Assembly (NCBI GenBank): GCA_016927395.1
Contig: JAFGMU010000009.1
Span: 1-49,617 of the forward strand
Direction of reading: 5' to 3'
Source: Alphaproteobacteria bacterium
Lineage (GTDB): Bacteria > Pseudomonadota > Alphaproteobacteria > Rs-D84
DNA length: 49,617 nt
Below are positions 10,890 through 39,514 of the stretch, in pieces (the first letter of the stretch is position 1; each line of letters starts with the position of its first letter). The notes under the pieces were generated by a model. It saw only the letters and a list, made by a program, of their open reading frames with translations. It did no database searches and was not told where the DNA came from. A program made the position numbers and the translations under genes.

Positions 10890-10916
10890 AAAAAAGCGGT
10901 TTTTAACCGCTTTTTT
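10890..10916. terminator. bidirectional terminator
   Basis: aaaaaaGCGGTTtttAACCGCtttttt between convergent genes. Confidence 0.8.
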
Positions 10917-22933: not shown

Positions 22934-22962
22934 TTGACTTTTTTATCGTTTTGTGATAGTAT
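22934..22962 (+). promoter_or_regulatory. near-consensus sigma-70 promoter with extended -10
   Basis: TTGACT-N17-TAGTAT with TGa immediately upstream of the -10. Confidence 0.55.
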
Positions 22963-22988: not shown

Positions 22989-23012
22989 CCGCACAATGAT
23001 GCGGTTTTTTTT
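22989..23012 (+). terminator. leader terminator 1
   Basis: CCGCAcaatgaTGCGGtttttttt, about 20-40 nt downstream of the predicted TSS. Confidence 0.5.
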
Positions 23013-23035: not shown

Positions 23036-23062
23036 AACCCGTAAATTTTTTACGGGTTTTTC
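23036..23062 (+). terminator. leader terminator 2
   Basis: AACCCGTAAAtttTTTACGGGTTtttc, a 10-bp stem 26 nt before the first gene of the particle cluster. Confidence 0.65.
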
Positions 23063-23087: not shown

Positions 23088-23498
23088 ATGCATTTGACGA
23101 TTATAAAAAATCCAGACGAATCAAAAATAGTCATGTATAAAATTGCAAGATTGGTTTATGCGGAAACTTTTGGTTCATCACTGGCTGCTGTGGAAGCTTT
23201 AACGTCAATGATATCTAACTTATGCATAACTTCAAAAAGAGAACTTTCTGACATAGCCCAAGATAATAATATTTTCGAATCATTAAACAAAAATTCAAAG
23301 CGTAATAAATATCTGTCAATTGATAGTGGAAATCGGAATTTTAAAATGTGCATTCGTGTAGTTCAAAGAATGTTTAATGGAAATTTACCAGATTCTTGTT
23401 TTGGCGCAACAAAATTTCATCATATCGAGGTGTTGCCAGATTGGGCCAGATCACGTGGATATATCGCAGAAATAGACGGTTTATTATTTTACTTATAA
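23088..23498 (+). CDS. cell-wall hydrolase (SleB/CwlJ Hydrolase_2 family), endolysin candidate
   Basis: IARLVYAETFG...ATKFHHIEVLPDWA...IDGLLFY follows the Hydrolase_2 pattern. Confidence 0.65.
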   Translation: MHLTIIKNPDESKIVMYKIARLVYAETFGSSLAAVEALTSMISNLCITSKRELSDIAQDNNIFESLNKNSKRNKYLSIDSGNRNFKMCIRVVQRMFNGNLPDSCFGATKFHHIEVLPDWARSRGYIAEIDGLLFYL

Positions 23499-23710: not shown

Positions 23711-24367
23711 ATGAATAAAATTCCAGAAAAATTTCTGAACGAAGACGGAACATTGAACTCTGATGCTTTGGTAAAGTCTTATTCTGAACTTGAAAAAAAA
23801 ATAGGGTCAATGATTTCTGTGCCAGATGAAGATTCAGATCCAGATGTGCGTGAAAAATTTAATCGCGCAATAGGTGTTCCAGATGATGCCAGTCAATATC
23901 CACAAAATGTTTTGTTTGAAGATGAATCGGTTCGTAATAAATTTTATGAAATTGGTTTGACTGCAAAGCAAGTTGAAAAAATTTATGAAATCGCAGATGA
24001 ATTTTTGTCACCAGTGTTATCAGAAGTTTTTAGAACACAATATGAATCAAACGCAATTTCTGATTTGAAAAAGTTTTTTGGTGACGAAGATAAAATGAAA
24101 GATGCAATAAAAGAAATAAATGCATTCGGACAAAAATTTTTACCAGCCGAAGCATTCGAAGCTCTAAGCGCTACACCCCAGGGAATTCAAAGCATTTATA
24201 AGATGATGCAATCAATGGAACCAACTGTTAGAACCGATAATAATGCTGCACAAAATTTTTCAGATTCAGATTTAAGACGAATGATGCGAGATCCAAAATA
24301 CTGGCGCGAACAAGATCCAGAATATGTTCGCAAAATCGAAAGCGGGTTCAAAAAATTATATTCATAG
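23711..24367 (+). CDS. capsid scaffolding/assembly protein candidate
   Basis: N-terminus MNKIPEKFLNEDGTLNSDALVKSYSELEKKIG is typical of podovirus scaffold proteins. Acidic, helical, and sits upstream of the capsid gene. Confidence 0.55.
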   Translation: MNKIPEKFLNEDGTLNSDALVKSYSELEKKIGSMISVPDEDSDPDVREKFNRAIGVPDDASQYPQNVLFEDESVRNKFYEIGLTAKQVEKIYEIADEFLSPVLSEVFRTQYESNAISDLKKFFGDEDKMKDAIKEINAFGQKFLPAEAFEALSATPQGIQSIYKMMQSMEPTVRTDNNAAQNFSDSDLRRMMRDPKYWREQDPEYVRKIESGFKKLYS

Positions 24368-24819: not shown

Positions 24820-24848
24820 AAAACACGCCCACAGGGCGCGTTTTTTTA
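24820..24848 (+). terminator. second intrinsic terminator
   Basis: aaaacaCGCCCacaGGGCGcgttttttt. Confidence 0.7.
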
Positions 24849-25026
24849 TTCGGTTTGATTTAATCTTTTAATTTTGATTCGCGGATAATTCTGGATGTCT
24901 TTGATAGATATTATTTGAACCCGCTTATTTTATTATTTGGCGCGATGATTCGCATAACCAGAAAATAAAATTCCCCTGATGCGCATTTTATGCGTTTTTT
25001 AATTTAAAAAACAAAAGGAAAATTTT

Positions 25027-25854
25027 ATGTCTGTTTCCATAGATCAAGTCTTCGTAAAACAATTCGAAGCTGATGTTCATTTGGCTTATCAGCAAATGGG
25101 CACCAAACTGCGTTCAACTGTTCGCAGCAAATCTGGTATTATCGGCAGTTCTACCACTTTCCAAAAAGTAGGCAAAGGAACAGCTGCAACAAAATCCCGC
25201 CATGGTATCGTGCCGGTTATGAATCTGAATCATGAACCTGTTGAATGTATGTTACAGGATTACTATGCAGGCGACTGGGTAGATAGTATGGATGAATTAA
25301 AAACAAATATTGATGAACGTCGTGTCGTTGCTTCGGCTGGTGCATATGCATTGGGACGCAAAACAGACGAATTGATTATTGATGCTATGAACGCTGCAAA
25401 TGTTGAAGTTGGCGATTACACAACAAATTTGACCAAAGATTTGATTTTATCTGCTGTAGAACAGTTAAATGCAAATGATGTGCCAGATGATGGTCGTAGA
25501 TTCGCAGTAGTTGGTGTTCAGCAATGGAATCAATTATTGTCAATGGATGAATTTGTATCTAGTGAATATGTTGGTGGCGAAACACCATTGGTATCAGGAT
25601 TTGAAACTAAAAAATGGTTGGGATTGGTTTGGGTATTACACAATGCTTTGCCAATAAACGAATCTGGTCGTGATTGTTTTATTTATCACGCAGCCAGCGT
25701 TGGGCACGCATGTGGACAAGAAGTTAAAACGGATATCAGCTGGCATGGTGAACGTGCTGCGCATTTTATATCCAACAGCATGTCCCAAGGCGCCGTTTTA
25801 ATTGATGCAGACGGTATCGTACGTATTAAGTGCGATGAAACTGCTTCTATCTAA
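25027..25854 (+). CDS. major capsid protein, T7 gp10-like
   Basis: VFVKQFEADVHLAYQQMGTKLRSTVRSKSGIIGSSTTFQKVGKGTA parallels T7 gp10 (LFLKVFGGEVLTAFARTSV...VRSISSGKSAQFPVLGRT). Position is scaffold > capsid > tubular proteins. Confidence 0.75.
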   Translation: MSVSIDQVFVKQFEADVHLAYQQMGTKLRSTVRSKSGIIGSSTTFQKVGKGTAATKSRHGIVPVMNLNHEPVECMLQDYYAGDWVDSMDELKTNIDERRVVASAGAYALGRKTDELIIDAMNAANVEVGDYTTNLTKDLILSAVEQLNANDVPDDGRRFAVVGVQQWNQLLSMDEFVSSEYVGGETPLVSGFETKKWLGLVWVLHNALPINESGRDCFIYHAASVGHACGQEVKTDISWHGERAAHFISNSMSQGAVLIDADGIVRIKCDETASI

Positions 25855-26130: not shown

Positions 26131-26167
26131 AAGACCAAGAGATTTTAATCTAGTGGTCTTTTTTTTA
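26131..26167 (+). terminator. terminator after the capsid unit
   Basis: AAGACCA...TGGTCTTtttttt compound hairpin. Confidence 0.7.
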
Positions 26168-26182
26168 ACACAGGATTTACAA

Positions 26183-26701
26183 ATGCTTACAAAAATTGAT
26201 TTGTGTTCTTTTGCACTGTTGAAACTGGGCGAAGAACCAATACAATCCCTGACTGATAATTCTGCTTCTGCTCAATTATCCAGGACACTTTTTGATCCAG
26301 TTGTCGAAACTTTGATTGCTTCGCATCCATGGCGATTCGCACAGAAGAAATTTGAATTAACAAAAACGGCTGATGATGTATTTTTGATACCTTCTGAAGT
26401 TCTGAGAGTTCTGAAATGTCCAGGAGAAGTAATAGGAAATACAATTATTTCTTCCAGTGATGTGATTTCAATTTCAGCAATAGTTCGCACATCAGTTGAA
26501 TATTTCCCAAGTTATTTTGTATCACTGGCCGCAACCAAGCTGGCAATGGAGTTTTGTATCCCATTGTTAGGTGATCAAAATGTTTTCAGAATGCTGGCAG
26601 CATTATACGAATCAGAGTTGCGCGTTGCAAAGTTTATAGACAGCACGATTTCGGTAAATACTGATATCAGAGATTTTTCGCTGGTCAGTGCACGTTTTTA
26701 A
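26183..26701 (+). CDS. tail tubular protein A, T7 gp11-like
   Basis: IDLCSFALLKLGEEPIQSLTDNSASAQLSRTLFD...HPWRFA parallels T7 gp11 (NDILASIGEPPVSTLEGD...A...GWTFN). Confidence 0.65.
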   Translation: MLTKIDLCSFALLKLGEEPIQSLTDNSASAQLSRTLFDPVVETLIASHPWRFAQKKFELTKTADDVFLIPSEVLRVLKCPGEVIGNTIISSSDVISISAIVRTSVEYFPSYFVSLAATKLAMEFCIPLLGDQNVFRMLAALYESELRVAKFIDSTISVNTDIRDFSLVSARF

Positions 26702-26725: not shown

Positions 26726-28438
26726 ATGGGAAACTTTATTTATACTCAAAACTCTTTTGCATCCGGAGAAGTGTCATCGGAATTTTTTGCACGTGAAAAT
26801 CTGAACGGGTTGTCAAAATTAGAAAATATGGATGTTATATCCAGTGGGGCTTTGTCCAGACGACGTGGTTTAATGAATGTATCAGAAACGATTGCTGGGA
26901 CACGATTAATACCTTTCTCTGTTAACGAAGATGAAAATTATATACTGGCATTGACTGATGGTCATATAAACGTTTTTTATAACGGATCAAAAATCCAAGA
27001 TATTATTTCACCATGGAACGAATCTAGTTTGGAAAAATTGCAGTATGCACAAAGATTTGGAACAATGATATTTGTTCATCCCGATTATCAACCCCATGTT
27101 CTGAAAAAAGGAATAATAAATTTTGAATTATCAGTTTTTAGTTTTTCATCAAATGATGATATGACTGTAAATATACCTTTTATGAAATTTGATGACGCCA
27201 GTGGAATAAAAATAACAGTAACAACAAGCGCGTACGGTAATAGTTATGCAACATTTACCACAAATAAAAATTTCTGGAACAGCACCAATGTTGGTGGTCG
27301 ATTATATTTGTTGGGAAAACAATGGATAGTTTATGAATATGTCAGCCCCACAGTTATAATAGCAAATCTTAATGGAAGTTATGTACTTCCGGGATCTGCT
27401 GTATCAGACTGGTCCGAGGCAGCATTTGGTACACGTCGTGGCTGGCCATGCAGTATTTCTTTTCATCAAGACAGATTGGTTTTTGGGGGTTCACGTGAAT
27501 GGCCCAGCGGTGTATGGATGTCCAAAGTCGGAAATCATAACAATTTTGATGCAGGCACAGGATTAGATGACGAAGCAATATTTATAACACTGTTGTCAGA
27601 ACAGCGTCAACAAATTTGCACAGTTGTCAGCAGTGATAATTTACAAATTCTGACATCAACAGGTGAATGGGCAATATCAAATAAACCATTAATACCATCA
27701 TCGGTTGATATAAAACAGCACACATCGGTTGGCAGTTTTTCTGAAAGATACTTGCCACCACAGAAAATAGAAGGCAGTACGGTTTTTATATCAAACAGTA
27801 AAAAAGATATTCGCGAATTGTCTTTGGACGAACTGAGTGAAAACTATAACGCGACTGATTTGTGTTCTTTGTCAAAGCACCTTATGGATAATCCAATAGA
27901 TTTGGCATACAACGATCAAACCGGTCAATTGTTTATAGTTATGCAAAATGGAGATATGGCTGTTTTAAATAAAAATTCAAATCTGGGTGTTTCTGCGTGG
28001 GGAATTTATAAAACCCAGGGAAATTTCGAATCTGTTGCAGTTATGGATGGTGAAACATATGTTTCTGTTAAACGTAATGATAAGACTTTTATAGAAAAGT
28101 TTTCAGATTTGGCCTTAATCGATAATGGAATTTATGGATTTTCATATGCAGCGTATGGGTTGCCTTTATTAAGTGCAAAAAATTCACCGACAAAAATCAG
28201 AATACGAAAAATCAGCGCGCGTGTTCTGAATACAAAATCATTGTTTATAAATGGGTTTCGCGCACCATTGCCCAATGAAGCATATTCAGATGATTCGCCA
28301 GGATATTCAGGCGATGTGTCTATAAATTTGTTGGGGTCATCAACAGACATAATCCAACCAGTGTGGAAAATAGAAAGCAGTGAACAACTGCCAACAACGG
28401 TTCTGTCACTAAGCGTTAATGGTTGGTACATGGTTTAA
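26726..28438 (+). CDS. tail tubular protein B, T7 gp12-like (short, 570 aa)
   Basis: N-terminus NSFASGEVSSEF...NMDVISSGALSRRRGL...ENYILALTDGHINVF parallels gp12 (KGGISQQP...GLQKRPP...YYAVFTNGDIRVF). Position is after gp11-like. Confidence 0.6.
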   Translation: MGNFIYTQNSFASGEVSSEFFARENLNGLSKLENMDVISSGALSRRRGLMNVSETIAGTRLIPFSVNEDENYILALTDGHINVFYNGSKIQDIISPWNESSLEKLQYAQRFGTMIFVHPDYQPHVLKKGIINFELSVFSFSSNDDMTVNIPFMKFDDASGIKITVTTSAYGNSYATFTTNKNFWNSTNVGGRLYLLGKQWIVYEYVSPTVIIANLNGSYVLPGSAVSDWSEAAFGTRRGWPCSISFHQDRLVFGGSREWPSGVWMSKVGNHNNFDAGTGLDDEAIFITLLSEQRQQICTVVSSDNLQILTSTGEWAISNKPLIPSSVDIKQHTSVGSFSERYLPPQKIEGSTVFISNSKKDIRELSLDELSENYNATDLCSLSKHLMDNPIDLAYNDQTGQLFIVMQNGDMAVLNKNSNLGVSAWGIYKTQGNFESVAVMDGETYVSVKRNDKTFIEKFSDLALIDNGIYGFSYAAYGLPLLSAKNSPTKIRIRKISARVLNTKSLFINGFRAPLPNEAYSDDSPGYSGDVSINLLGSSTDIIQPVWKIESSEQLPTTVLSLSVNGWYMV

Positions 28439-28459: not shown

Positions 28460-28807
28460 ATGTCACAAATAGTATCTGATGTAACAGATGTTTTGAATAA
28501 TAAAAAATCAGAAAAAGAAGCAGATAATTCAAGAAAAAAAATATTGGCACAAATTGCGGCCGATGAAAAAGCAAAAACAAATTTGGTAAAAAAAACGCTA
28601 GCAACCCAACGTGCTAAATACGGTGCTGCTGGGATGTCCAGCAGTGGAATGACCGAAGAAGCCGTTTTGAAAAGGCTGCGTGAAGAAACCGAAGAACCAT
28701 ATAACGAAAAGAAAAGAACAAATTTGGAAAAGTTAAAGAATGTAAAAGCAAAAAAGACAAATCTTTTGGGTTCATTGGTTTCAAATTTAGACAATCTGTT
28801 CAAATAA
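28460..28807 (+). CDS. Lys-rich coiled-coil protein, the only ORF in the slot where T7 has internal virion proteins
   Basis: 115 aa with strong SD (aaaggagaaaataATG). No motif. Confidence 0.5.
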   Translation: MSQIVSDVTDVLNNKKSEKEADNSRKKILAQIAADEKAKTNLVKKTLATQRAKYGAAGMSSSGMTEEAVLKRLREETEEPYNEKKRTNLEKLKNVKAKKTNLLGSLVSNLDNLFK

Positions 28808-28832: not shown

Positions 28833-29381
28833 ATGTATAAAGTTTCATACTTTGGTGATGGTCAGACTTTGGAATTTATTTTTGTATTTCCTTTCTTTCA
28901 AGAATCAGATATTCGTGTTGCACTGAACGAAGAGGTTTTAGATTTTTCGCAGTATAGCGTTAAAATTAATCCAGAATTTGATGGTGGTACAGTAATGTTT
29001 GCTGTGCCCCCAATCGAAGGTACAAAAATAGACATATTCAGACAAATAAGTCTAGAAAGAACAATTGATTACCAGCCGACTGTAAAAATAGATCCAGAAA
29101 ATCTTAATACTGATTTTAATTTTATATTGGAAGCATTTAAAGATTTTAAATCAATAGATGTTGATTTTGCAGAATGGAAAAATATTCACGATAATGTAGT
29201 GTCCAGTATTGAATACACAATCAGTCTAATAGAAGATAAACTTTCCGGCGGCGGTGTTTTAGGTTTGTATAACAATTTATTATCAGTACTTGCCAGTGCT
29301 GTGCCGAATTTAATAAATGATTATGGTTCAATAGCTGAAATTGCAAATAATGAAAACGCAGACGATTACGGAATATTATAA
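28833..29381 (+). CDS. tail fibre N-terminal (particle-attachment) domain only, T7 gp17-like
   Basis: VSYFGDGQTLEFIFVFPFFQESDIRVALNEEVL..YSV...GTKIDIFRQISLERTIDYQ...ENLNTDFNF follows the Phage_T7_tail pattern (YQLDGSNRDFNIPFEYLARKFVVVTL...IELRRVTS..RLVDF..ILRAYDLN). It stops at 182 aa vs 553 aa in T7. Confidence 0.65.
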   Translation: MYKVSYFGDGQTLEFIFVFPFFQESDIRVALNEEVLDFSQYSVKINPEFDGGTVMFAVPPIEGTKIDIFRQISLERTIDYQPTVKIDPENLNTDFNFILEAFKDFKSIDVDFAEWKNIHDNVVSSIEYTISLIEDKLSGGGVLGLYNNLLSVLASAVPNLINDYGSIAEIANNENADDYGIL

Positions 29382-29958
29382 ATTTTTAGATGAATGGAAT
29401 AAACTGTTGAATCTGGATACTCCAAAACATCATAAACAAATAACAGAGTTTTTGGCTGATGTTTTCGAAAATTCACCAAAACGCGGATTGCTGATGGCTT
29501 TTCGACATTCTGGAAAGTCGTCTGTTGTAGGAATTTTTGCAGCATGTGTTTTGTATCTTTATCCACAAACAAGAATACTGATTTTATCTGCAGAAACAAA
29601 ATTGTCTTCTCGGATGGTTTCGCACATAAAACATATCTTGGAAAATCATCCAAAGTGTAGTGATATGTTACCAGATGTAAAAAAAGAATGGGGTTCGCAC
29701 AAGATAACAATCGAGCGTCCAATTGGAATTCGTGAACCGTCTGTGATTTGTCAGGGAATTCATGGAAACGTAACTGGTTTGCGTGCAGATTTGATAATTT
29801 GCGATGACGTAGAAGTTCCAAATACAAGTAACACAAATCAAAAGCGTGAAAGTTTGCGTGAAAGATTGCGTGAATTAGATTTTATATTATCACCAAACGG
29901 GGCAATGATTTACATTGGCACCCCACATACAGTTGATACTATTTATCGCGTGGAATAA
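29350..29958 (+). CDS. large terminase, N-terminal ATPase fragment
   Basis: Walker A FRHSGKSS, Walker B DLIICDDVE, coupling motif YIGTPHT. A stop follows ...VDTIYRVE. Confidence 0.75.
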   Translation: MKTQTITEYYKFLDEWNKLLNLDTPKHHKQITEFLADVFENSPKRGLLMAFRHSGKSSVVGIFAACVLYLYPQTRILILSAETKLSSRMVSHIKHILENHPKCSDMLPDVKKEWGSHKITIERPIGIREPSVICQGIHGNVTGLRADLIICDDVEVPNTSNTNQKRESLRERLRELDFILSPNGAMIYIGTPHTVDTIYRVE

Positions 29959-29960
29959 AA

Positions 29961-29986
29961 AAAAGCATCTAAATTTAGATGCTTTT
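29961..29986. terminator. perfectly palindromic bidirectional terminator at the left edge of the inserted block
   Basis: AAAAGCATCTAAATTTAGATGCTTTT. Confidence 0.8.
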
Positions 29987-29991
29987 AAAAT

Positions 29992-30627
29992 TTATATACT
30001 GCTGACGAATATACGAAGCTTGGAAAGAATTTCTTTTCCCTGGTCACCGAACATAGGAAGATAAGTCTCGTATTCTGGTAAATCTGCTTGGATACGTGCG
30101 CGTGAGCGTTCTGATAGTGGTGCTGCCAAAATATCATTAGCAACTTTCCATAAATAATATGCACGTGCAGTTTTTATAACATTATTCCATTTTTCCATCA
30201 ATTCATGGTTGCTGGAAAGAGCAGAGCGTATAGCAACTTGCCATTCGTCACCAAATCTTTTCACAACATTTAAAGATTTGATTTTGTTAAGACCGTCTAA
30301 GTCTGGAGCAAATTCAGCAAGTGCGTTTTCAAGTTCTGCAACTTCGGATTCGGAAAGATGAATTGATACAATTGATTCTGACATTAAACCGCCATAGGGA
30401 ACCAAATCAGGAGAAATAGAGTCCATAGGTGTTTTGCCACTCCGCAGATTTTCAATATGTTGTGCCAACATACGTCCAGTTGGTAATTCTTTGATTTCCA
30501 AAATTACTTCTGTATCAGCTTCTTTAACGAAAATCTGGTTTACGGTTTTCCATCCACCAAAAATAACATGATGTTGACGATAAAGATTCAAAAGCTTTTG
30601 TGCAATTACGCTCGGCTTAGTTTTCAT
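29992..30627 (-). CDS. hypothetical protein (211 aa) downstream of the dual-HTH regulator
   Basis: SD ggagag before the ATG. No motif recognised. Confidence 0.6.
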   Translation of the reverse strand: MKTKPSVIAQKLLNLYRQHHVIFGGWKTVNQIFVKEADTEVILEIKELPTGRMLAQHIENLRSGKTPMDSISPDLVPYGGLMSESIVSIHLSESEVAELENALAEFAPDLDGLNKIKSLNVVKRFGDEWQVAIRSALSSNHELMEKWNNVIKTARAYYLWKVANDILAAPLSERSRARIQADLPEYETYLPMFGDQGKEILSKLRIFVSSI

Positions 30628-30646
30628 CACTCTCTCCGTGAACTTT

Positions 30647-31654
30647 TTATTCCATGACGATCATAACAACTTTGTGCATAGTTTTATAAGTTATCTTTTC
30701 GTCAGGGGATAAAACTTGTCCGTAAACGTTCCCTTTGGAATCTTCGCGAACGATTGCAATTTGTGCATTAGCAGAACTGTCAAATCCCAGTTTTTCAAAA
30801 TCAGCATCAACAAAAACCGCCATATCACCAACAACAGGTTTCTTTTCAGAATCTGCAAAAATATAAGATTTTTCAGGAATTGTGCTGCCTAAACGTTTTG
30901 TATTTGGAATTACAGCATAGATTCCTTTGCGACCTTCCAAGCTGATTGGAGAAACAATCATTGTTTTATCAGATTTTTTGAAAGATATATTTTTTCCGTT
31001 TGGTGTTCCAAAAACAGGGGCCAGTTTTTTACGAGCGCTGTCATATAATTTTGCACCGTACAAACTTCCTGGTAAATCAATTCCAGACAAAGGACTGCCT
31101 GGTATTAATACAGATTTTACACGTTCTTTGACCTTGTTTATTTGTTTGTTCAAATCACCGGATTTATATAATTTTGCAACTTCGTCAAACATTGTTGCAA
31201 CAGAGTGTTTGAATGATTTGGCCAAAGGTTCGATTTCTTTTTCATAAACTTCGCGTTGTCCAACTTCGATTTTATGATAAACAGACAATGTCATACCTGC
31301 ATCTTTGGCGGCCTGGGCGATTGTTTTTCCAGCCTTTTGACGAATTTTGCGCAAGCCACTACCGAATATTTTCAGTCCGCTGCCTTCGTTGTCTGTCAGT
31401 CTGCGTTTGATTTCATTTTGCCAAACATCTGCGACTTCATCGGATTCACGAATAAATATATCGGAAAGTTTGCATCCCAAGATATTGCAAATATTCAACA
31501 ATTGTTTTTGATTCAGACGACGTACGCCTTTTTCAATTTTTGAAACAGCAGATAAAGAAAGTTTTGCACGTCTGGATAATTCGGTCATTTTCATACCATT
31601 TGCCAAACGAATATTTCTGATGTTATTTGGGAATATAATTTCTTCCTGAGCCAT
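30647..31654 (-). CDS. XRE-family regulator with two HTH domains and a C-terminal beta-rich (S24-like?) domain
   Basis: IRNIRLANGMKMTELSRRAKLSLSAVSKIEKG and LRKIRQKAGKTIAQAAKDAGMTLSVYHKIEVG are two HTH_3 units. The C-terminus has ...VVGDMAVFV... without a clear Ser/Lys dyad. Start set at MAQEE (SD aaggggg). Confidence 0.7.
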   Translation of the reverse strand: MAQEEIIFPNNIRNIRLANGMKMTELSRRAKLSLSAVSKIEKGVRRLNQKQLLNICNILGCKLSDIFIRESDEVADVWQNEIKRRLTDNEGSGLKIFGSGLRKIRQKAGKTIAQAAKDAGMTLSVYHKIEVGQREVYEKEIEPLAKSFKHSVATMFDEVAKLYKSGDLNKQINKVKERVKSVLIPGSPLSGIDLPGSLYGAKLYDSARKKLAPVFGTPNGKNISFKKSDKTMIVSPISLEGRKGIYAVIPNTKRLGSTIPEKSYIFADSEKKPVVGDMAVFVDADFEKLGFDSSANAQIAIVREDSKGNVYGQVLSPDEKITYKTMHKVVMIVME

Positions 31655-31730
31655 GACAAACCCCCTTGTTGACAAAAATGTTAGTCAATTTTTTATAAGT
31701 TCGCAAGAGAAATAATTTAGGAAAGTATTT

Positions 31731-33299
31731 TTAGTATTGAATATTGTCTGAAATATTATTCAAATCTGGTTCATTATTATCTTTCTTTGAACCAAAAGAG
31801 TTTGTTTTTGGTTCCGCAAAAGAATTGTACCCACTGTTACCATGGTCAAATTCATCCAAATCTTCGAATAAACTGTATTCACCTTTGAATGCCAGGCGCA
31901 TAGTTTCTGGTTTTCCGTGACGGTTTTTGCCGACTATGATTTCGGCTTTGCCGCGGGCATCGTTCAAACGTTTTGCCCATTCTTCATGTTCTTTTTGCAA
32001 GAACTGGTCACTGCGGCCGGAAATTTTATACATCGGGTCACGACCGTCCAGATAATATTCTTCGCGGTATGTAAACATTACAATGTCAGCGTCTTGTTCA
32101 ATTGATCCTGATTCACGCAAATCTGACAACTGTGGTCGTTTATCTGTTCTGTCTTTGGATTCGACATTACGTGATAACTGGGACAGGGCGATAACTGGGA
32201 CATCCAATTCCTTGGCCAGCATTTTTAAACCACGAGTTATTTCAGAAATTTCGTTAACACGATTGTCGCTGCGTCTTCCACCAGGGGATGTCATCAACTG
32301 TAAATAGTCAATTACAATCAATGCAATTCCGCCGTGTTTACGTGCAATTCTGCGTGCGCGTGTACGCATCATTGGAACGGACATTCCAGGTGTGTCGTCA
32401 AAATACAACGGTACCTTGGACAGTGCATCTGAATATTGTGACATTTTCAGGAAATCTTCGTCTGTTAATGATCCGTTGCGCATAGAGCTGCTGGAAATTT
32501 TTGTCTGCGAAGACAGAACACGTGATGCTAACTGCGAAGCAGACATTTCAAGACTGAAAAATACAACTGCGCCTTTGTATTTTTTGTTTGCTCGTTCTGA
32601 TAAAATAGCACTGGCCGCATTAAATGCAATATTCATTGCAAATGTGGTTTTACCCATCGCAGGACGTCCAGCAATTATAATCAGGTCAGAATGATGAAGA
32701 CCACTGATAGATTTATCCAGTTCACGAAATCCAGTTGTCAGACCAGAAAGTTTACCATCGGCCTTGTATGCGATTTCGGCTTCTTCCAGTGCTTCGCGTA
32801 ACGCGCTGGAAATAGGCATTGCGCCTTTTTCAGTAGAGCCCGCAACAGATAAATCAAAAAGTCTTTTTTCTGCAGATTCAATTTGTGTAGAAACAGGATT
32901 TTCCAAATCTTCTATGAATGCAGAATCGGTTATGTCTTGGCCCAGGTTTATTAATTCACGACGAAGTGCGTTTTCATAAACAATACGTCCATATTGTTCA
33001 GCGTTAACAACTGTTGTTCCTGCACCTGACAATTGTGTCAGATAATCAATTCCGCCAACGGATTCCAAGACACCCTGTTGTTCCAGATAATTTTTTGCTG
33101 TGATAATATCAAATGGAATTCCAGCTGCGAATTGTTTTTCAGCTAGTTTATAAATTTCCTTATGGGCAGGATGTGTAAAGTGATCAGGTCTTAGAAATTC
33201 AGACATGCGTTCCAAGGCGCGGTTATTCACCAGTACCGCTGCCAAGACTGCTTGTTCTGCTTCCAAGTTTGTCGGTAAAGTTTTCGGAGTAAAATCCAT
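31731..33299 (-). CDS. dnaB: replicative DNA helicase DnaB (522 aa, with a low-complexity C-terminal tail)
   Basis: LPTNLEAEQAVLAAVL N-terminus, GRPAMGKTTFAMNIA Walker A, IVIDYLQLM, ALSQLSR, ESGSIEQDAD. Confidence 0.95.
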   Translation of the reverse strand: MDFTPKTLPTNLEAEQAVLAAVLVNNRALERMSEFLRPDHFTHPAHKEIYKLAEKQFAAGIPFDIITAKNYLEQQGVLESVGGIDYLTQLSGAGTTVVNAEQYGRIVYENALRRELINLGQDITDSAFIEDLENPVSTQIESAEKRLFDLSVAGSTEKGAMPISSALREALEEAEIAYKADGKLSGLTTGFRELDKSISGLHHSDLIIIAGRPAMGKTTFAMNIAFNAASAILSERANKKYKGAVVFFSLEMSASQLASRVLSSQTKISSSSMRNGSLTDEDFLKMSQYSDALSKVPLYFDDTPGMSVPMMRTRARRIARKHGGIALIVIDYLQLMTSPGGRRSDNRVNEISEITRGLKMLAKELDVPVIALSQLSRNVESKDRTDKRPQLSDLRESGSIEQDADIVMFTYREEYYLDGRDPMYKISGRSDQFLQKEHEEWAKRLNDARGKAEIIVGKNRHGKPETMRLAFKGEYSLFEDLDEFDHGNSGYNSFAEPKTNSFGSKKDNNEPDLNNISDNIQY

Positions 33300-34146
33300 G
33301 GCAGATATAGTATATCAAAATTTTCAATTTTCAACGCCTTTTTTAAGAGGGTATAAAGAGCTTAGAATTCCGGTACTGAATTCCCACGGAATATCAGCAT
33401 GGCCAGAGCTTTTTCCGTTGGAAAAAATAGAAGAAATGCGCGATATTGTCGGCCCCAGACATTTTTCTTCGCAGATGATGTTGGAATATGTTAACGAAGA
33501 TAAAGCCAGATTAGATCCCGGTGCACTACATTTTTACGATTATAATTTTGATTCAAATAATGCAAAGTTGGGGGATAATTTGATAACAGGTGCTGCGATG
33601 TATTGGGATCCAAGTGGTGGTATGGCAAAATCAGACAACAGCGTTTGTGTTTTGATTTATAGAGATGATAGAAACCGTCGTATATTTATCCAAGATGTAA
33701 AATATTTAACCGTAGATGATAATGATTTTCACCCTTTGGCGACCCAATGTGAATCAATTTTGAATTTTATGCAGGTTCATAACCAAAAAAAAATCGCAAT
33801 TGAAGTAAATGGAATGGGAAATGCTTTGCCAGAAATATTACGCGAAGCTGCTATGAAACGTGGGCAATCAGTTCTGGTTCAAAAAATAGTCAGCAATCTG
33901 AATAAAGAAAAAAGAATACTGAATGCAATAGAGCCATTGTTAACAACGGGTCGGTTATATGCGCATGAAAAAATAAAATCTACTCCGCTATTATCTGAAA
34001 TGCTGGGGTGGTCACCATTGATGTCAAACAACAAAGACGATGGCTTGGACGCTTTGGCTGGGGCTATGCAATTACAACCTACGATAATCAGGACGTTGTC
34101 CAGTAAATTACGACCGTTAAAAGCAAAAATCGATTTTAAAGTTTGA
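33298..34146 (+). CDS. large terminase, C-terminal nuclease fragment
   Basis: WPELFPLEKIEEMRDIVGPRHFSSQMMLE, YWDPSGGMAKSDNSVCVL, IAIEVNGMG and KDDGLDALAGAM are RNase-H-like terminase nuclease motifs. The ATG interlocks with the dnaB ATG (CATG at 33297-33300). Confidence 0.75.
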   Translation: MADIVYQNFQFSTPFLRGYKELRIPVLNSHGISAWPELFPLEKIEEMRDIVGPRHFSSQMMLEYVNEDKARLDPGALHFYDYNFDSNNAKLGDNLITGAAMYWDPSGGMAKSDNSVCVLIYRDDRNRRIFIQDVKYLTVDDNDFHPLATQCESILNFMQVHNQKKIAIEVNGMGNALPEILREAAMKRGQSVLVQKIVSNLNKEKRILNAIEPLLTTGRLYAHEKIKSTPLLSEMLGWSPLMSNNKDDGLDALAGAMQLQPTIIRTLSSKLRPLKAKIDFKV

Positions 34147-34149
34147 ATA

Positions 34150-34743
34150 TTATTGTGCGTAATTGCACGTACCAGTGTCGATTATATAACTGCCCTTGGT
34201 ATTACTTCCAGTTTTTCCAGCCGAAAGATAACAACCAGTTATTGATGTGCTGCCTGAACTTGATGTGGCATTTGAATTTCCGGTTGCTAATACACAACTT
34301 ACACAATTGGAACCGTTGTAATAATAACCTGCGTTGCAAACAACACTTCCGGTTGTACACGTTGCATTTGATGGACATGGACTGCATGTCGTACTTGAAC
34401 TTAGATAATAACCGGAATTACAAACAATTGTACCAGTTGTACAAGTTGCATTTGATGGACATGGACTGCATGCTGTACTGGAACTTTTATAATATCCGGA
34501 ATTACATGTGAATGTTGATGGATTTATAGCTTCTCCAGAACATGTTGCATTTGCAGGGCATGCGACGCAGCCTGTATAACTGCTGGTTGCTGTTCCATAA
34601 TATCCAAATGCACAGAAATAAATAATTGGACAACTTAAACAACTTGAGCCAGATGGAGTACAAATAGGATATAAGGCAGAAAAAGCACCAGTCACTGAAA
34701 CAGCATAAATAAATAAAGAAAAAATATAAGTTTTAATTTTCAT
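34150..34743 (-). CDS. secreted cysteine-rich repeat protein (197 aa, ~20 Cys)
   Basis: Signal peptide MKIKTYIFSLFIYAVSVTGAFS. Repeated C-N-S-G-Y-Y-x5-C-S-P-C-P-S-N-A-T-C-T-T-G units (CxxC spacing). Confidence 0.75.
   Translation of the reverse strand: MKIKTYIFSLFIYAVSVTGAFSALYPICTPSGSSCLSCPIIYFCAFGYYGTATSSYTGCVACPANATCSGEAINPSTFTCNSGYYKSSSTACSPCPSNATCTTGTIVCNSGYYLSSSTTCSPCPSNATCTTGSVVCNAGYYYNGSNCVSCVLATGNSNATSSSGSTSITGCYLSAGKTGSNTKGSYIIDTGTCNYAQ
34339..34506 (-). repeat. two near-identical 84-nt (28-codon) tandem repeats inside the Cys-rich gene
   Basis: CNSGYYKSSSTACSPCPSNATCTTGTIV / CNSGYYLSSSTTCSPCPSNATCTTGSVV. Confidence 0.85.
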
Positions 34744-34745
34744 TT

Positions 34746-35009
34746 TTATATTTGTGGATCCAATGGATCAAGTATACCATCATCGCAAGTACAAGAAATT
34801 TCATCAAAAAACATTGGTGGACAATCTGGTTCGCAAGTACAAGTTGGAGAAGAATATTCGTATGTTAATTTGCATACGTTATTTATGCAATTTGTTTGTC
34901 CTATGCATAATGCGGTTCTTTCAAAGCAATCATATATAATTCCAGAAGGTGGGGCAAAAGCCTGTGATGCAAAAAATAAAACAAATAAAAAAGATAATAT
35001 TTTTTTCAT
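34746..35009 (-). CDS. small secreted cysteine-rich protein (87 aa)
   Basis: MKKILSFLFVLFFASQAFA signal. The mature part has 9 Cys (…CTCEPDCPP…CTCDDG). Its stop lies 2 nt before the start of the next Cys-rich gene. Confidence 0.65.
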   Translation of the reverse strand: MKKILSFLFVLFFASQAFAPPSGIIYDCFERTALCIGQTNCINNVCKLTYEYSSPTCTCEPDCPPMFFDEISCTCDDGILDPLDPQI

Positions 35010-35131
35010 GATGTTCACTGTTATGTACATTGGCATTATAGAAAGAAAATACATATTCTGTAAAGATTATTTTTATTCTTGGATTTATATAATTTATATT
35101 ATAAAATTGTTTGGTAGTTCAAGGATAAAAT

Positions 35132-35426: not shown

Positions 35427-35454
35427 AAAATCCCGCATTTTGCGGGATTTTTTA
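35427..35454 (+). terminator. intrinsic terminator
   Basis: aaAATCCCGCAttttGCGGGATTtttt. Confidence 0.8.
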
Positions 35455-35473: not shown

Positions 35474-36694
35474 ATGAATAAAAATCTTTTACAACTTTAT
35501 AAAAAGGCATTAGATATGCGTGATCCGTGGTTGAATCGTTGGGATTCTGCACGACGTTATACCATGCCGACAACGGACGATGAAATTGCAACACTTTACG
35601 ATGCAACAGCGTCCGATGCAGTCGATAATTTGGCCGCCAGTATGTACACTTTATTAACACCACCCGAATCTGGTTGGTTAAATTTGGTTCGCGAAAGTGA
35701 TTTGTCACCAGATGCAGAAATCGCAACTAAAACATTACGTGCGCATTTAAACGATTCAAATTTTTATACAACAATTCATCAATGTTATTTGGATTTAGTT
35801 ATTTTTGGAACAGCTTGTTTATTTATGTCTGAAAATCCAATTGGTGCTGACAGTGCGTTTTCTTTCACAGCTATTCCTGTATCGGACATTGCAATATTGG
35901 GTGGTGCGATATTTCATACCACGTCAATGACCGCAGCCGAAGTAATGGAAAAATATCCAACATGGACACCACCTGCAAATTTACGTAGCTCTATTAAAAC
36001 TAATCCGCAAATACAATTAAAATTGGTGCAAAGCCTGGTTGGAAAAGAATTTACAGCTTGGTTAGATGTTGGTGGTGATATTGAAAATAATATAGTATCC
36101 CATGGTGTTTTTGAAACAAATCCATATATTATTTTCCGCTGGTCATTGGCCAGTGGTGAATTGTATGGTCGCAGTCCTGTGTTACGTGCTTTGCCCGATA
36201 TTAAAACTGCAAACAAAGTCGTAGAACTGGTTTTAAAAAATGCAACTATCGCAGTCAGTGGAATTTGGCAGGCTGATGACGACGGTGTTATAAATTTGTC
36301 GAATATTAACCTGACGCCGGGTGCAATAATTCCAAAAGCTGTTGGATCATCGGGATTAACACCATTGTCATCAGGTGCCGATTTTGATGTTTCACAGATA
36401 GTTTTGGGCGATTTACGCGACAGAATCAGACATACATTGCTGGCAGACAGATTGGGGTTTTTGTCTGAAAAAGAAATGACAGCAACAGAAATACTGGCAC
36501 GCAATGCAGATATGATGCGTGTTCTGGGCGCAACATATGGTCGTTTGTTGAATGAATTTATTAAACCAATGTGTGAACGTGGTTTGCAAATATTATCGCG
36601 TCGCGGATTGATTGAAAAAATATCTTTGCATTCGGACGCAGAATTAAAATACATGGCACCAATTGCACAAATGACTGGAAATACAATTTTGTAA
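35474..36694 (+). CDS. portal (head-tail connector), T7 gp8-like (short, 406 aa)
   Basis: GELYGRSPVLRALPDIKTANKVVELVLKN parallels T7 DGESYGRSYIEEYLGDLRSLENLQEAIVK. MTATEILARNADMMRVLGATYGRLLNEFIKPM parallels VTAEEIRYVASELEDTLGGVYSILSQELQLPL. Confidence 0.8.
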   Translation: MNKNLLQLYKKALDMRDPWLNRWDSARRYTMPTTDDEIATLYDATASDAVDNLAASMYTLLTPPESGWLNLVRESDLSPDAEIATKTLRAHLNDSNFYTTIHQCYLDLVIFGTACLFMSENPIGADSAFSFTAIPVSDIAILGGAIFHTTSMTAAEVMEKYPTWTPPANLRSSIKTNPQIQLKLVQSLVGKEFTAWLDVGGDIENNIVSHGVFETNPYIIFRWSLASGELYGRSPVLRALPDIKTANKVVELVLKNATIAVSGIWQADDDGVINLSNINLTPGAIIPKAVGSSGLTPLSSGADFDVSQIVLGDLRDRIRHTLLADRLGFLSEKEMTATEILARNADMMRVLGATYGRLLNEFIKPMCERGLQILSRRGLIEKISLHSDAELKYMAPIAQMTGNTIL

Positions 36695-37165: not shown

Positions 37166-37286
37166 ACGCATATGAAATTAGTGCTTTTTAAGGACATATT
37201 GTTTGACTTAATATTGGGTTAACTATATAATAAAATTAGTTGTCCAAAAAGGATACATAAAACAATATTTAAAATAAGGAAAAAAA

Positions 37287-37493
37287 ATGAAAAAAATAAT
37301 TTTGTTAACTGCTTTAACAGTATCTTTGACAGGTTGTTACGTTTATAAAACTGAACATATTATGAAACCAGCGGGTAAAGAATGTTCTTATAATGTAAGT
37401 AAAATTGGTAATTCTATTGTTGGCTATTCAGAAAGTTCAAATTCTAATGAATTTCGTGCTGAAAAAGATTGTAAAGAATGGTTAAGAAAATAA
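37287..37493 (+). CDS. small lipoprotein (68 aa), o-spanin-like
   Basis: MKKIILLTALTVSLTGC lipobox. Short mature part with 2 further Cys. Confidence 0.45.
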   Translation: MKKIILLTALTVSLTGCYVYKTEHIMKPAGKECSYNVSKIGNSIVGYSESSNSNEFRAEKDCKEWLRK

Positions 37494-37500
37494 AATAATA

Positions 37501-37527
37501 AAAACCGGGCAGATTTGCCCGGTTTTT
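37501..37527. terminator. bidirectional terminator
   Basis: aaaACCGGGCagatttGCCCGGTtttt. Confidence 0.85.
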
Positions 37528-37528
37528 A

Positions 37529-37672
37529 TTATTTATTACAGCTATCAATAATTCTGGAAATTGATATGTCTTTGTGAAACAAAAAGCCATATTCACAATT
37601 GCCAGATTTATATGAACCTGTGCAAGCTGCCAATGTTAAAACAGCAAATAATACTAATAATAATTTTTTCAT
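37529..37672 (-). CDS. small lipoprotein (47 aa)
   Basis: Own translation MKKLLLVLFAVLTLAACTGSYKSGNCEYGFLFHKDISISRIIDSCNK. Lipobox LAAC. Confidence 0.4.
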   Translation of the reverse strand: MKKLLLVLFAVLTLAACTGSYKSGNCEYGFLFHKDISISRIIDSCNK

Positions 37673-37736: not shown

Positions 37737-38093
37737 TTATATAGCGTTTTTGAACCAATTTATATGGTGACCACAAACAGTAATGACGTCAAATCTGGCG
37801 TCGCCAACCCAATGTTTTTTCATTATATAATTTTCAGCAGCACTTCGTAATCTGGCAATTTGTTGTTTGCTTATAGCATCAAAAGCAACTTCAATATTTT
37901 TTCGTTTTTTTACTTCTACAAAAATAATTAAATTTCCACGACGTGCAATTATATCAATTTCAGCGCGATTTGTATTTCGTCCTGTAATATATCTGGATTC
38001 TAAAATTTTAAAACCGTGAAATCGCAAAAACCACCGTGCCAGAAATTCCGAAACCAGACCATAATCATAAGAAGTTTTGTTTTTAGAAAGCAT
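37737..38093 (-). CDS. yraN: YraN-family (UPF0102) endonuclease
   Basis: GFKILESRY....AEIDIIARRGNLIIFVEVKKR...FDVI is the classic YraN pattern. Start set at MLSKNK. Confidence 0.8.
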   Translation of the reverse strand: MLSKNKTSYDYGLVSEFLARWFLRFHGFKILESRYITGRNTNRAEIDIIARRGNLIIFVEVKKRKNIEVAFDAISKQQIARLRSAAENYIMKKHWVGDARFDVITVCGHHINWFKNAI

Positions 38094-38865
38094 AGGGTTT
38101 TGCGCGGAAATTTTCACGTGCTTCTTGGACGTTCTTAGCAGCGTCGGAGGCATTTCTGCCCATATCCACCAAATCCAATGACCCATAATAAGCAGTCATC
38201 ATTGGATCATAAGCATTTCCAGATGAAATCCATTTATCATTTCCAGAATTCGGCGCACCGTATTTGTCCAAAACACCTTGCCAGAATGCCAATATTTTTT
38301 TCTGTCTTTGGTTTTCAAATTTTTCATCGGCGCCTTCAATATTATTCACATCATTATTATAAACGATGCGCCAAACCAGGTTATCTGTTGCATTACTGGT
38401 GAAATAAATATCAACTGTTTCACCGGTACTGTTCCGTTCCAGATGCAATTCAGATGCATACATCAATCCGCGGTTTGTTGCCAGCGTATTTATACATTTT
38501 TCCAATTGTGCAGGCGCATAGATTTTTTGTTGTCTGCATTCATAATCCAAGTTGTACTTCCAATCTTTGTGCATTGTATAAATTATACTATCTTTTTTTC
38601 TGGGAACATATAGAGACTTTGTTTTGAAGAACAAAGTTTGAACATCTTCGAATGGCATTCCCAACATTACCCCAGCAATATCAAATCCAGAAACATTAAC
38701 AGGTGCAGAATCCATATTCATAGATACTGGTGTTGTTGTAATATCTGCATTATCGCTGTCTTCGATTGCAAAATTTTTTAACGAAAATGGATCATCTTCT
38801 GCAAAAAGAATACCAATTGGCGCAAATGCAAAAACATAGAAAACAAATAATATTTTTTTAAGCAT
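38083..38865 (-). CDS. secreted hypothetical protein (260 aa)
   Basis: MLKKILFVFYVFAFAPIGILFA signal peptide. No motif. Confidence 0.6.
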   Translation of the reverse strand: MLKKILFVFYVFAFAPIGILFAEDDPFSLKNFAIEDSDNADITTTPVSMNMDSAPVNVSGFDIAGVMLGMPFEDVQTLFFKTKSLYVPRKKDSIIYTMHKDWKYNLDYECRQQKIYAPAQLEKCINTLATNRGLMYASELHLERNSTGETVDIYFTSNATDNLVWRIVYNNDVNNIEGADEKFENQRQKKILAFWQGVLDKYGAPNSGNDKWISSGNAYDPMMTAYYGSLDLVDMGRNASDAAKNVQEARENFRAKPYAF

Positions 38866-38875
38866 CTTGGTCTTA

Positions 38876-39514
38876 CTATCTCCGTACTTCATCAACTCTG
38901 AATTTGAAAATTGCCGCAGGGTCGCCGCCGCTATTCAAATATTTTTGAACATCAAATTTCGAACCGGCCCGTTTATCACGAACACCTTTTTCAAATACTA
39001 TTTTCAAATATATAATTCCATTTTCAACCTGCGGAGTCAAATTCATATCATTGGATTTACCCCAGGTTTTTAATTCATAATGTACTTCCCAATAATCGCC
39101 TTTTTTTATAATCTCGTCAACAACTGTTGCAGTACGCATACATTTTTTGTCTGATAATGTGTTGATTTCTTTTGCGACATTCTTTTTCCAGTCTTTGAAT
39201 ACGATTGGTCCAGACATTGCTGCCATTACACTGTCACTACGAGTACGCAAAGCAATATTTTCAACGTCTGGGTTCACATAAAAGTATTCGGTTATAAATT
39301 TTTTTATCAATTTTTCCCGAACGAATTTATCAGACAATTGGTCAATTGGAACAGGGTGTCCAATACGATCACTGGACAGATTATTTGGTTGGAAAACAAA
39401 AGCATCAATGTATCTGTCATTATTTGCATCAAACAATGCACCTGAAAAATAAAGTGCTGCGACTGATAACAACAAAATCATAATTCCAGAAAAAAACATA
39501 ATAATTTTTCGCAT
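38876..39514 (-). CDS. bitopic membrane protein, possibly VirB8/DotI-like (NTF2-type periplasmic domain)
   Basis: N-terminal TM, then KFVREKLIKKFITEYFYVNP...WEVHYELKTW. The layout resembles VirB8/IcmL proteins. Tentative. Confidence 0.3.
   Translation of the reverse strand: MRKIIMFFSGIMILLLSVAALYFSGALFDANNDRYIDAFVFQPNNLSSDRIGHPVPIDQLSDKFVREKLIKKFITEYFYVNPDVENIALRTRSDSVMAAMSGPIVFKDWKKNVAKEINTLSDKKCMRTATVVDEIIKKGDYWEVHYELKTWGKSNDMNLTPQVENGIIYLKIVFEKGVRDKRAGSKFDVQKYLNSGGDPAAIFKFRVDEVRR

Follow-up and report, generated by a model that had tools for sequence, protein, structure and literature searches.

Large terminases are regarded as single-chain motors. A 49,617-nucleotide (nt) segment of a low-G+C bacterial chromosome, here called the window, raises the question of whether a large terminase (TerL) can also work in two pieces. 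On its plus strand, an open reading frame (ORF) for the ATPase core of a large terminase (TerL-N, 202 amino acids [aa], positions 29350 to 29958 in an ORF open from 29341) ends in ...VDTIYRVE, and the remainder of the enzyme resumes 3.3 kb further on in a second ORF (TerL-C, 282 aa, 33298 to 34146). Between them, on the minus strand, lie a gene for a 212-aa conserved protein with no assigned function (29992 to 30630), a gene for an XRE-type regulator with two helix-turn-helix (HTH) domains (30647 to 31675), and a full-length replicative helicase gene, dnaB (31731 to 33299), whose ATG shares the tetranucleotide CATG (33297 to 33300) with the plus-strand ATG of TerL-C. A preliminary description of this DNA had set out the arrangement, each feature of which we found where it had been placed, and had left two options: either the terminase is inactivated, with both halves surviving as clean ORFs, or it acts as a two-piece enzyme. 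Our analysis points to the latter. We consider it probable that, in a group of uncultured gut Alphaproteobacteria, a fissioned, functional TerL belongs to a domesticated cluster resembling a gene transfer agent (GTA) and that the cell's dnaB operon sits in the gap and is transcribed from within TerL-C.

We compared the two ORFs with terminase families and with intact homologs. TerL-N contains a Walker A motif (FRHSGKSS), a Walker B motif (LIICDDVE), and motif III (IGTPHT) and matched positions 3 to 189 of the 500-position NCBIfam model termin_lrg_T7 (NF033889) with 220 bits (cut-off, 150). TerL-C matched positions 333 to 499 of the same model, as well as the Pfam families Terminase-T7_RNaseH-like (7.7e-10, above the cut-off) and Terminase_6C (8.6e-06). 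After clustering at 50%, the nearest full-length TerLs, 42 to 49% identical to TerL-N, were 450 to 530 aa long, compared with 484 aa for the two halves combined, and the representatives that were at least 59% identical to TerL-N were solely fragments of 59 to 210 aa. In MAFFT alignments with intact homologs, the end of TerL-N (GTPHTVDTIYRVE) and the start of TerL-C (MADIVYQNFQFSTPFL) flanked a variable linker of ~12 to 17 residues. The aligned TerL-N stopped just past the motif III segment (IGTPHTVDTIYRVE), TerL-C opened beyond the linker at MADIVYQNFQFSTPFLRGY, and no residues were lost or repeated at the break.

When the two halves were concatenated and modeled with AlphaFold2 alongside 64 intact homologs, the prediction reached a predicted local distance difference test score (pLDDT) of 93.1 and a predicted template modeling score (pTM) of 0.87; because its input was an artificial fusion accompanied by intact homologs, these values speak to the compatibility of the halves with one fold and not to their assembly. 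Prediction from the single sequence was uninformative (pLDDT, 37). In the guided model, the junction (residues 202|203) falls in a coil (residues 191 to 221) between strands 180 to 190 and 222 to 226, and this coil is among the lowest-confidence parts of the model. The top Foldseek match was the TerL of the T7-like phage PhiV-1 (8dgc; E value, 9.6e-27), which a profile search also found (1.9e-69). In the 64-sequence alignment, the window protein holds the conserved residue at every invariant or near-invariant column, including K56, D152, D153, E155, D306, E371, D449, and D450; K56, D152, D153, E155, G190, and T191 of TerL-N are invariant columns.

Thus, of the hallmarks of a T7-type TerL, the N-terminal ASCE ATPase (Walker A, Walker B with the catalytic Glu, and motif III) and the C-terminal RNase H-like nuclease with its acidic residues are both present, and the single polypeptide of ~450 to 590 aa is replaced by two of 202 and 282 aa encoded 3.3 kb apart. 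Judged from sequence and predicted structure, the split enzyme is a TerL by descent and fold, in a two-gene variant, and TerL-N and TerL-C make up one complete T7-type large terminase that is broken in a predicted variable surface loop after motif III. Since the break follows motif III and lies in this coil, the cut is inside the ATPase domain, and, by the order of secondary structure in the model, TerL-C supplies the last ATPase strand and the lid in addition to the nuclease. The proposal that the ORFs are halves of a single contiguous terminase is therefore upheld by family models, alignment, structure prediction, and structure search alike, with no part of the protein missing.

If the split were an accident of one genome or of one assembly, it should not recur. 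Searches gave 850 homologs of TerL-N and 833 of TerL-C. Among the 120 listed for each, all those of TerL-N were 196 to 226 aa long and 75 to 100% identical, and those of TerL-C were 261 to 402 aa long (261 to 374 aa in 119 of them). The order TerL-N, unassigned gene, HTH gene, dnaB, TerL-C, portal gene was found in L001 to L005, L010, L012 to L016, L030, and L090, and it recurs in every locus of the clade that is long enough, from human, ruminant, and other gut metagenomes. The same-junction check in relatives that the preliminary description had proposed thus found the split in every syntenic locus examined. Sequencing or assembly error was rejected as its source because the same arrangement is present in many independent assemblies (more than 10).

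In more distant relatives, the halves lie further apart. In L098, from termite gut, 9.2 kb separates them and includes a β-lactamase gene, a recG-like gene, and dnaB; in L009, recG lies between dnaB and TerL-C; and in L097, neither TerL-N nor dnaB lies within 10 kb of TerL-C. On this comparison of loci, the gap between the halves has grown to at least 9 kb in deeper termite-gut lineages. Because the two halves have been kept apart across lineages, even at distances of at least 9 kb, they appear to have long been independent, maintained genes. This rules out that the terminase was inactivated recently and favors a functional enzyme in two pieces.

Selection acts on both halves. Pairwise ratios of nonsynonymous to synonymous divergence (dN/dS) were 0.05 to 0.08 for TerL-N and 0.05 to 0.21 for TerL-C, which places both halves in the range of the capsid and portal genes; over all particle genes, they spanned 0.01 to 0.22. 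These values are rough because synonymous differences are near saturation (pS, 0.47 to 0.80). Both halves are, by this measure, under strong purifying selection. Separate ORFs in hundreds of relatives, together with this constraint, favor the two-piece enzyme over inactivation. One locus, L011 (636 to 5226), has decayed: capsid residues 1 to 85 are joined to TerL-N residues 177 to 200, the portal gene was not found, and most particle genes are lost, with dnaB retained in inverted orientation. The preliminary description had suggested that an enclosed dnaB, if it is the only one, would stabilize the element; in L011, the particle genes nevertheless decayed around a dnaB that was kept.

A different two-ORF terminase was seen in an unrelated bacterium, in which L094 (8001 to 9480) and L095 (8001 to 9441) carry a terminase-only remnant in two ORFs (one of 210 aa, the other of 284 or 271 aa) with an 8-nt overlap. 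The protein is interrupted at roughly the position of the break in the window, as the result of either a frameshift that made a pseudogene or a fission of independent origin.

How are two genes expressed whose start codons interlock? The preliminary description had held that dnaB has no visible Shine-Dalgarno (SD) sequence and that any promoter for it must lie inside TerL-C, and both points stand: there is no SD before dnaB in the window, and a conserved promoter motif is present where it was expected. In a DNA alignment of 11 loci, the 17-mer TTTTCAACGCCTTTTTT (33328 to 33344), which forms TerL-C codons 11 to 16 (FSTPFL), is identical in all 11, in loci whose TerL-C proteins are just 51 to 61% identical to that of the window. 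Read on the minus strand, it provides a −35 element (TTGAAA), and a conserved −10 element (TACTAT) lies at 33312 to 33307. The scan gives a candidate promoter with 16-nt spacing (33307 to 33334, minus strand, inside TerL-C codons 4 to 13), and the conservation of its motif suggests that a σ70-type dnaB promoter may lie within the first 13 codons of TerL-C. The dnaB ATG begins 7 nt past the end of the −10 element, a spacing that fits a leaderless dnaB mRNA and would explain the missing SD. In loci of the CATG type, we infer that the dnaB mRNA is probably leaderless.

Variation at this junction fits that reading. Ten of the 11 aligned loci have an in-frame TerL-C ATG that interlocks with that of dnaB, and in all 11, a GGAG or GGGG SD precedes TerL-C; in the window, it is GGAG at 33286 to 33289, 8 nt before the ATG and antisense within dnaB codons 4 and 5. 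In L016 and L030, an 18-nt in-frame insert in the TerL-C N terminus, and in L090, a 44-nt spacer at the junction, each bring an AAGGA SD for dnaB, variants that appear consistent with a leaderless dnaB in the remaining loci. A longer TerL-C beginning at an ATG at 33205 was rejected; that start is not conserved, unlike the start in CATG and its SD.

The same comparison bears on how the ends of the two halves came to resemble each other. The similarity between VDTIY at the end of TerL-N and ADIVY at the start of TerL-C had been proposed to be a diverged target duplication. The codons for ADIVY coincide, on the opposite strand, with the −10 region of dnaB. In L009 and L011, dnaB is not the divergent neighbor of TerL-C, and TerL-C starts with MTDNQPFLKGF or MNEQSQPFLRGY, without the stretch DIVYxNFxFST. 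Its absence where dnaB is not divergent therefore suggests that the stretch was shaped by the promoter and not by a target duplication. Nor were there flanking direct repeats or junction DNA repeats at the ends of the block, and the duplication proposal finds no support.

At the other end of the block, 8 of the 11 loci have a 2-nt overlap (CTAG or TTAA) between the stop codons of TerL-N and the unassigned gene, such that most members of the clade have no spare nucleotide at either junction (CATG at the starts and CTAG or TTAA at the stops). The perfect 13+13-nt palindrome with T-runs on both sides (29961 to 29986), a candidate bidirectional terminator to which the preliminary description had drawn attention, is present in the window as described and is peculiar to it; most relatives have overlapping stops in its place.

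We also considered what kind of dnaB is enclosed. Its product has both Pfam domains (DnaB, 3.4e-30; DnaB_C, 3.5e-100) and scored 609.5 bits against the alphaproteobacterial replicative helicase equivalog NF006606 of NCBIfam (cut-off, 540), compared with 400.8 bits against phage_DnaB TIGR03600, under the cut-off of 498.65; it was also under the cut-off of the SPI-7-island model. With a score above the equivalog cut-off and both domains present, the enclosed dnaB scores as the canonical cellular alphaproteobacterial type and not as the phage type. It is among the most constrained genes of the locus and usually the most constrained (dN/dS, 0.015 to 0.08), and DnaB identity is 71 to 79% within the clade and no more than 51% in other Alphaproteobacteria. 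No TerL, HTH gene, or unassigned gene lies near dnaB in the loci of other Alphaproteobacteria, and the outgroups share no common neighbor genes from which an ancestral dnaB neighborhood could be read. Annotation of the block for defense systems with PADLOC returned generic HTH matches and one weak mad8 match for DnaB.

The two other genes of the block are similarly stable. The regulator, which has two HTH_3 domains (Pfam, 2.7e-18) and a C-terminal domain, is 52 to 81% identical across the clade (dN/dS, 0.04 to 0.10) and may be of phage origin. The 212-aa protein, whose gene always abuts TerL-N (dN/dS, 0.10 to 0.17), has 1,008 homologs, those among the 120 listed being 211 to 233 aa long, and had no match in Pfam, NCBIfam, PHROG, or PADLOC.

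The terminase halves sit in a cluster of particle genes, all on the plus strand, that encodes an endolysin, scaffold, capsid, adaptor, nozzle, 115-aa protein, fiber stub, TerL-N, TerL-C, portal, and Bbp19-like protein. In order, these are an endolysin-like protein of 136 aa (23088 to 23498; phrog_938 endolysin, 1.7e-07), whose orthologs in relatives bear faint marks of Hydrolase_2; a T7-type scaffold (capsid assembly) protein (23711 to 24367; Pfam Phage_T7_Capsid, 3e-10); the major capsid protein (25027 to 25854; Pfam Phage_capsid_2, 3.3e-70; dN/dS, 0.04 to 0.13); a tail protein that corresponds to the T7 adaptor gp11 in size and position (26153 to 26701; phrog_394 tail protein, 2.4e-29); a tail nozzle like T7 gp12 (26726 to 28438; phrog_376 tail protein, 7.7e-84), whose homolog in L089 matches Pfam Phage_nozzle; the 115-aa protein (28460 to 28807), which has no assigned function and no family match in Pfam or PHROG and is syntenic in all clade loci (dN/dS, 0.05 to 0.16); and a short protein similar to the N-terminal region of tail and tail-fiber proteins (28833 to 29381; phrog_1640 tail protein, 2.1e-10), whose residues 4 to 82 match positions 10 to 94 of the 765-position profile. 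Beyond TerL-C follow the portal, or head-to-tail connector (35474 to 36694; Pfam Head-tail_con, 3.3e-80; dN/dS, 0.01 to 0.10), and the Bbp19-like small phage protein (36710 to 36904; Pfam Phage_Bbp19, 2e-09).

The chromosomal site of the cluster is fixed across divergent members, with lipB on the left and a UPF0102 gene on the right (bamA and rseP further on in some loci), and the 20-kb loci examined contain no integrase, polymerase, or primase genes. These phage-derived genes, vertically inherited at a fixed locus without integration or replication genes and with purifying selection on the particle genes, have several of the properties by which GTAs are recognized.

A near-consensus candidate promoter for the cluster (TTGACT-17-TAGTAT with a TG-extended −10) was found by scanning at 22934 to 22962, and the sequence TTGACT...TGTGATA(G/C)TAT also lies 5' of the endolysin gene in L001 and L004. 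Between this promoter and the first particle gene are two tandem hairpins resembling intrinsic terminators (22989 to 23004 and 23036 to 23058), with equivalents in L001 and L004; further terminator-like hairpins lie directly 5' of the capsid gene (24826 to 24838 and 24981 to 24995; also in L001, L004, and L090) and immediately 5' of the portal SD (35427 to 35451; similar in L004, L090, and L097). Terminator-like sites numbered 28, compared with an expected 10.9 ± 2.9. By analogy, this layout of a promoter followed by terminators suggests that the cluster may be controlled by antitermination; processive antitermination controls the GTAs of Caulobacter and Bartonella (bioRxiv 10.1101/2023.11.12.565669 and 10.1101/2024.11.20.624540).

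TerL-C and the portal gene each have an SD and no recognizable promoter of their own. In L011, TerL-C is preceded by a TTGATT-17-TATAAT promoter and a terminator. We can offer only tentatively, as a possibility we somewhat doubt, that TerL-C and the portal gene are reached either by antisense read-through resistant to the terminators or from a promoter inside dnaB. Either route would run against the dnaB promoter, and the two programs would therefore interfere.

In the explanation that we regard as probable, a T7-like particle cluster would have been domesticated and then inherited vertically, and an ancient fission of terL would have fallen in the surface loop after ATPase motif III. TerL-N, with Walker A, Walker B, and motif III, and TerL-C, with the last strand, the lid, and the nuclease, would be translated separately and would reassemble noncovalently into a working packaging enzyme. 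The gap would behave as ordinary chromosome, in which the clade holds dnaB, the double-HTH regulator, and the unassigned gene in the opposite orientation. Transcription of dnaB would start at the σ70-type promoter in the first 13 codons of TerL-C; that of TerL-C and the portal gene would start inside dnaB or arrive by read-through from the promoter at 22934; and the cluster would produce particles of the GTA kind.

Several observations weigh against this explanation. The association of the halves and the production of particles are read indirectly, from genes and predicted structure, and the model and the dN/dS values carry the limits given with them above. TerL-C alone scored 105 bits against termin_lrg_T7, below the full-length cut-off of 150, and it is less conserved than TerL-N (51 to 63% compared with 70 to 78% identity to the window). 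No small terminase (TerS), holin, T7-type internal core protein, or full-length fiber was recognized with Pfam or PHROG. The scans found no convincing or conserved σ70 promoter for TerL-C, and how TerL-C is expressed is a guess. Finally, L011 has lost most of its particle genes, which shows that at least one lineage can do without the cluster.

Decay is also what one rival would predict. That the terminase was inactivated by an insertion and that the cluster is a decaying prophage remnant, its clean ORFs mere leftovers, is very unlikely. The capsid/TerL-N fusion and missing portal gene of L011, the remnant in L094 and L095 with its terminase in two overlapping frames and no capsid genes, and the unrecognized TerS and core proteins are what such an account would draw on, but it is already strongly disfavored by the full-length ORFs of both halves in hundreds of independent sequences, by their dN/dS of 0.05 to 0.21, like that of capsid and portal, by the retention of all conserved alignment positions, and by the persistence of the split across lineages differing by 25 to 45% in protein, even where the halves are at least 9 kb apart. 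If both halves are functional, they might still work separately, as a stand-alone ATPase and a stand-alone nuclease in other cellular roles. TerL-C supplies a strand and the lid without which the predicted ATPase fold would be incomplete, both halves occur together with similarly constrained genes for capsid, portal, scaffold, and tail, and their homologs are nearly equal in number (850 and 833); we therefore give this idea little credence, even though the halves are far apart in L097 and evolve at unequal rates and L011 keeps TerL-C without most of TerL-N.

The halves might instead be rejoined, by programmed excision of the 3.3-kb block, by an intron, or by a split intein, which strikes us as extremely improbable. 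The two ORFs do share a strand and follow each other in the correct order, such that precise deletion of the block would restore one gene, and if making particles is lethal to the cell, as it probably is, the loss of dnaB at that moment would do no harm. The block, however, contains no recombinase (Pfam, NCBIfam, and PADLOC) and is not flanked by direct repeats, so that a developmentally excised element of the skin or nifD type was rejected. A scan of the whole window at Rfam gathering thresholds returned five tRNAs only and no intron structure, so that a group I or II intron, or other joining at the RNA level, was rejected as well. The 484 aa of the joined halves leave no room for an intein, with no extra sequence at the break and no Cys, Ser, or Thr at the +1 position (TerL-C starts with M-A-D), and a split intein was likewise rejected. 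In L098 and L097, moreover, the halves lie 9 kb and >10 kb apart, with unrelated genes between them. A further alternative concerns the block itself, which might be phage derived or mobile (a replication-repressor module or a satellite), its dnaB being an extra paralog and the cell's real dnaB lying elsewhere. In a circularized T7-like genome, the genes for regulation and replication fall between terL and the portal gene; the double-HTH protein, which matches transcriptional regulator and repressor families of PHROG, looks like a phage repressor; and these genomes were scanned for dnaB with a few exact peptide patterns and among the matches listed, a point that also counts against the explanation we favor. 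This alternative is nonetheless distinctly unlikely, given that the protein passes the alphaproteobacterial equivalog cut-off and fails the phage and SPI-7-island models, that its gene is among the most constrained, that its identity drops with taxonomic distance, as expected of vertical inheritance, and that dnaB is kept where particle genes decay (L011) and is joined by recG in L009 and L098.

A fissioned, functional TerL with a nested dnaB operon thus remains our preferred explanation, and a bolder extension of it, which we think rather unlikely, would go further. The cluster would represent an unrecognized family of GTAs in gut Alphaproteobacteria, derived from a T7-like phage and equipped with a two-polypeptide motor, in which late transcription crosses the dnaB operon or starts inside it, making an either/or switch. 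If this were true, the onset of particle production would turn the replicative helicase off, active transcription of dnaB would silence the nuclease half and the portal gene, and the CATG interlock would be the physical core of the switch.

Several other features of the region deserve mention. The window also carries the host genes parC, gap, miaA, priA, lpxI, bamA, rseP, cdsA, and uppS. Between TerL-C and the portal gene, the minus strand encodes two cysteine-rich proteins of 197 and 102 aa (34150 to 35054) with matches to TNFR- and EGF-like repeats; this interval holds no genes in L001 and L004 and three small ORFs on both strands in L090. Just 5' of lipB and the cluster lies a conserved plus-strand ORF of 140 aa (21800 to 22222; 170 aa in L001 and 139 aa in L004) with only subthreshold matches to the winged-helix families MarR and Trans_reg_C; its product may regulate the cluster. 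A second strong promoter-like site, TTGACT-17-TATAAT (11 of 12 matches), follows the last particle gene (region 37203 to 37534), and ~260 nt beyond it is a bidirectional terminator with a 19-bp stem; no ORF of at least 100 aa lies between the two, and the unit could encode a small RNA or a small peptide. Further downstream, on the minus strand, are a VirB8-like gene and unassigned neighbors (38083 to 40206) that are conserved in L090. In L098 (221 to 15271), the portal and Bbp19 genes are separated by tmk and thyA, so that cellular genes are interspersed among the particle genes there.

The N-terminal domain found in the tropism determinant of BPP-1 (Mtd_N) also occurs in a 160-aa protein encoded on the minus strand at 10915 to 11397. 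L001 to L003 have a gene for a 158-aa Mtd_N protein just downstream of the particle cluster (17637 to 18113 in L002), and a bAvd gene lies nearby in L098 (19487 to 19837). These genes hint that receptor-binding parts of the diversity-generating-retroelement (DGR) type may belong to the element.

The nearest relatives of the split enzyme are the TerLs of T7-like phages (T7 gp19; PhiV-1, 8DGC; NF033889), with which it shares fold, domain order, and conserved positions, just as the portal, scaffold, capsid, and nozzle are of the T7 type. It differs in being encoded by two genes, 3.3 to >10 kb apart and split inside the ATPase domain; in its length (484 aa, compared with 586 aa for the PhiV-1 sequence in 8dgc); and in its chromosomal, vertically inherited location outside a phage genome. 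A compact T7-like cluster of ~10 to 11 kb in another bacterial chromosome, also flanked by host genes (L089, P0124), is a close parallel to the cluster as a whole. Its capsid is 62%, its TerL 47% and 35% (for the two halves), and its portal 45% identical to those of the window, and it likewise has scaffold, adaptor, nozzle, endolysin, and Bbp19 genes. In contrast, its TerL is a single ORF of 496 aa, its gene order and site are different, and dnaB is not nearby.

With the GTAs of Alphaproteobacteria (the viriforms RcGTA, CcGTA, and BaGTA), the cluster shares phage-derived genes, a fixed locus, and purifying selection, and with CcGTA and BaGTA it shares the layout of a promoter followed by terminators. 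Cellular genes are also interspersed or scattered among GTA genes (PMC9662315). Unlike RcGTA and BaGTA, it has a T7-like structural module and a two-piece terminase, and its GTA nature is putative. The cluster looks like a new GTA-like lineage, built on a T7-like module, in widespread gut bacteria. In the literature covered, which extends to few subscription journals, we found no account of a domesticated GTA of the T7-like type or of a terminase whose halves enclose dnaB. The head-to-head arrangement of dnaB and TerL-C, with a candidate promoter in terminase codons, would be an unusually tight link between a domesticated virus and host replication, and this packing may tie particle production to replication control.

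To our knowledge, no naturally split large terminase maintained by selection has been known. A cut inside the ATPase domain that a whole clade has kept would reveal a site at which the motor can withstand being split, and a natural two-part terminase would be a system in which to study communication between ATPase and nuclease. Parallels to its organization come from other viruses. The herpesvirus terminase gene UL15 consists of two exons that flank the antisense genes UL16 and UL17 and are joined by spliceosomal splicing. There, too, a gene for a terminase ATPase-nuclease is interrupted by genes of the opposite strand with both of its parts on the same strand; here, by contrast, there is no intron signature, each part has its own start codon, and an SD precedes TerL-C. 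The NrdA of Aeromonas phage Aeh1, split by mobE, and the T4 topoisomerase proteins gp39 and gp60 are each encoded in two ORFs and regain activity by assembling noncovalently. They resemble TerL-N and TerL-C in that one enzyme is made from two ORFs separated by inserted DNA. Whereas the insert in those cases is a homing endonuclease gene or a short phage segment, the insert here consists of cellular genes of an essential type on the opposite strand, cuts a RecA-like ATPase, and has been kept throughout the clade.

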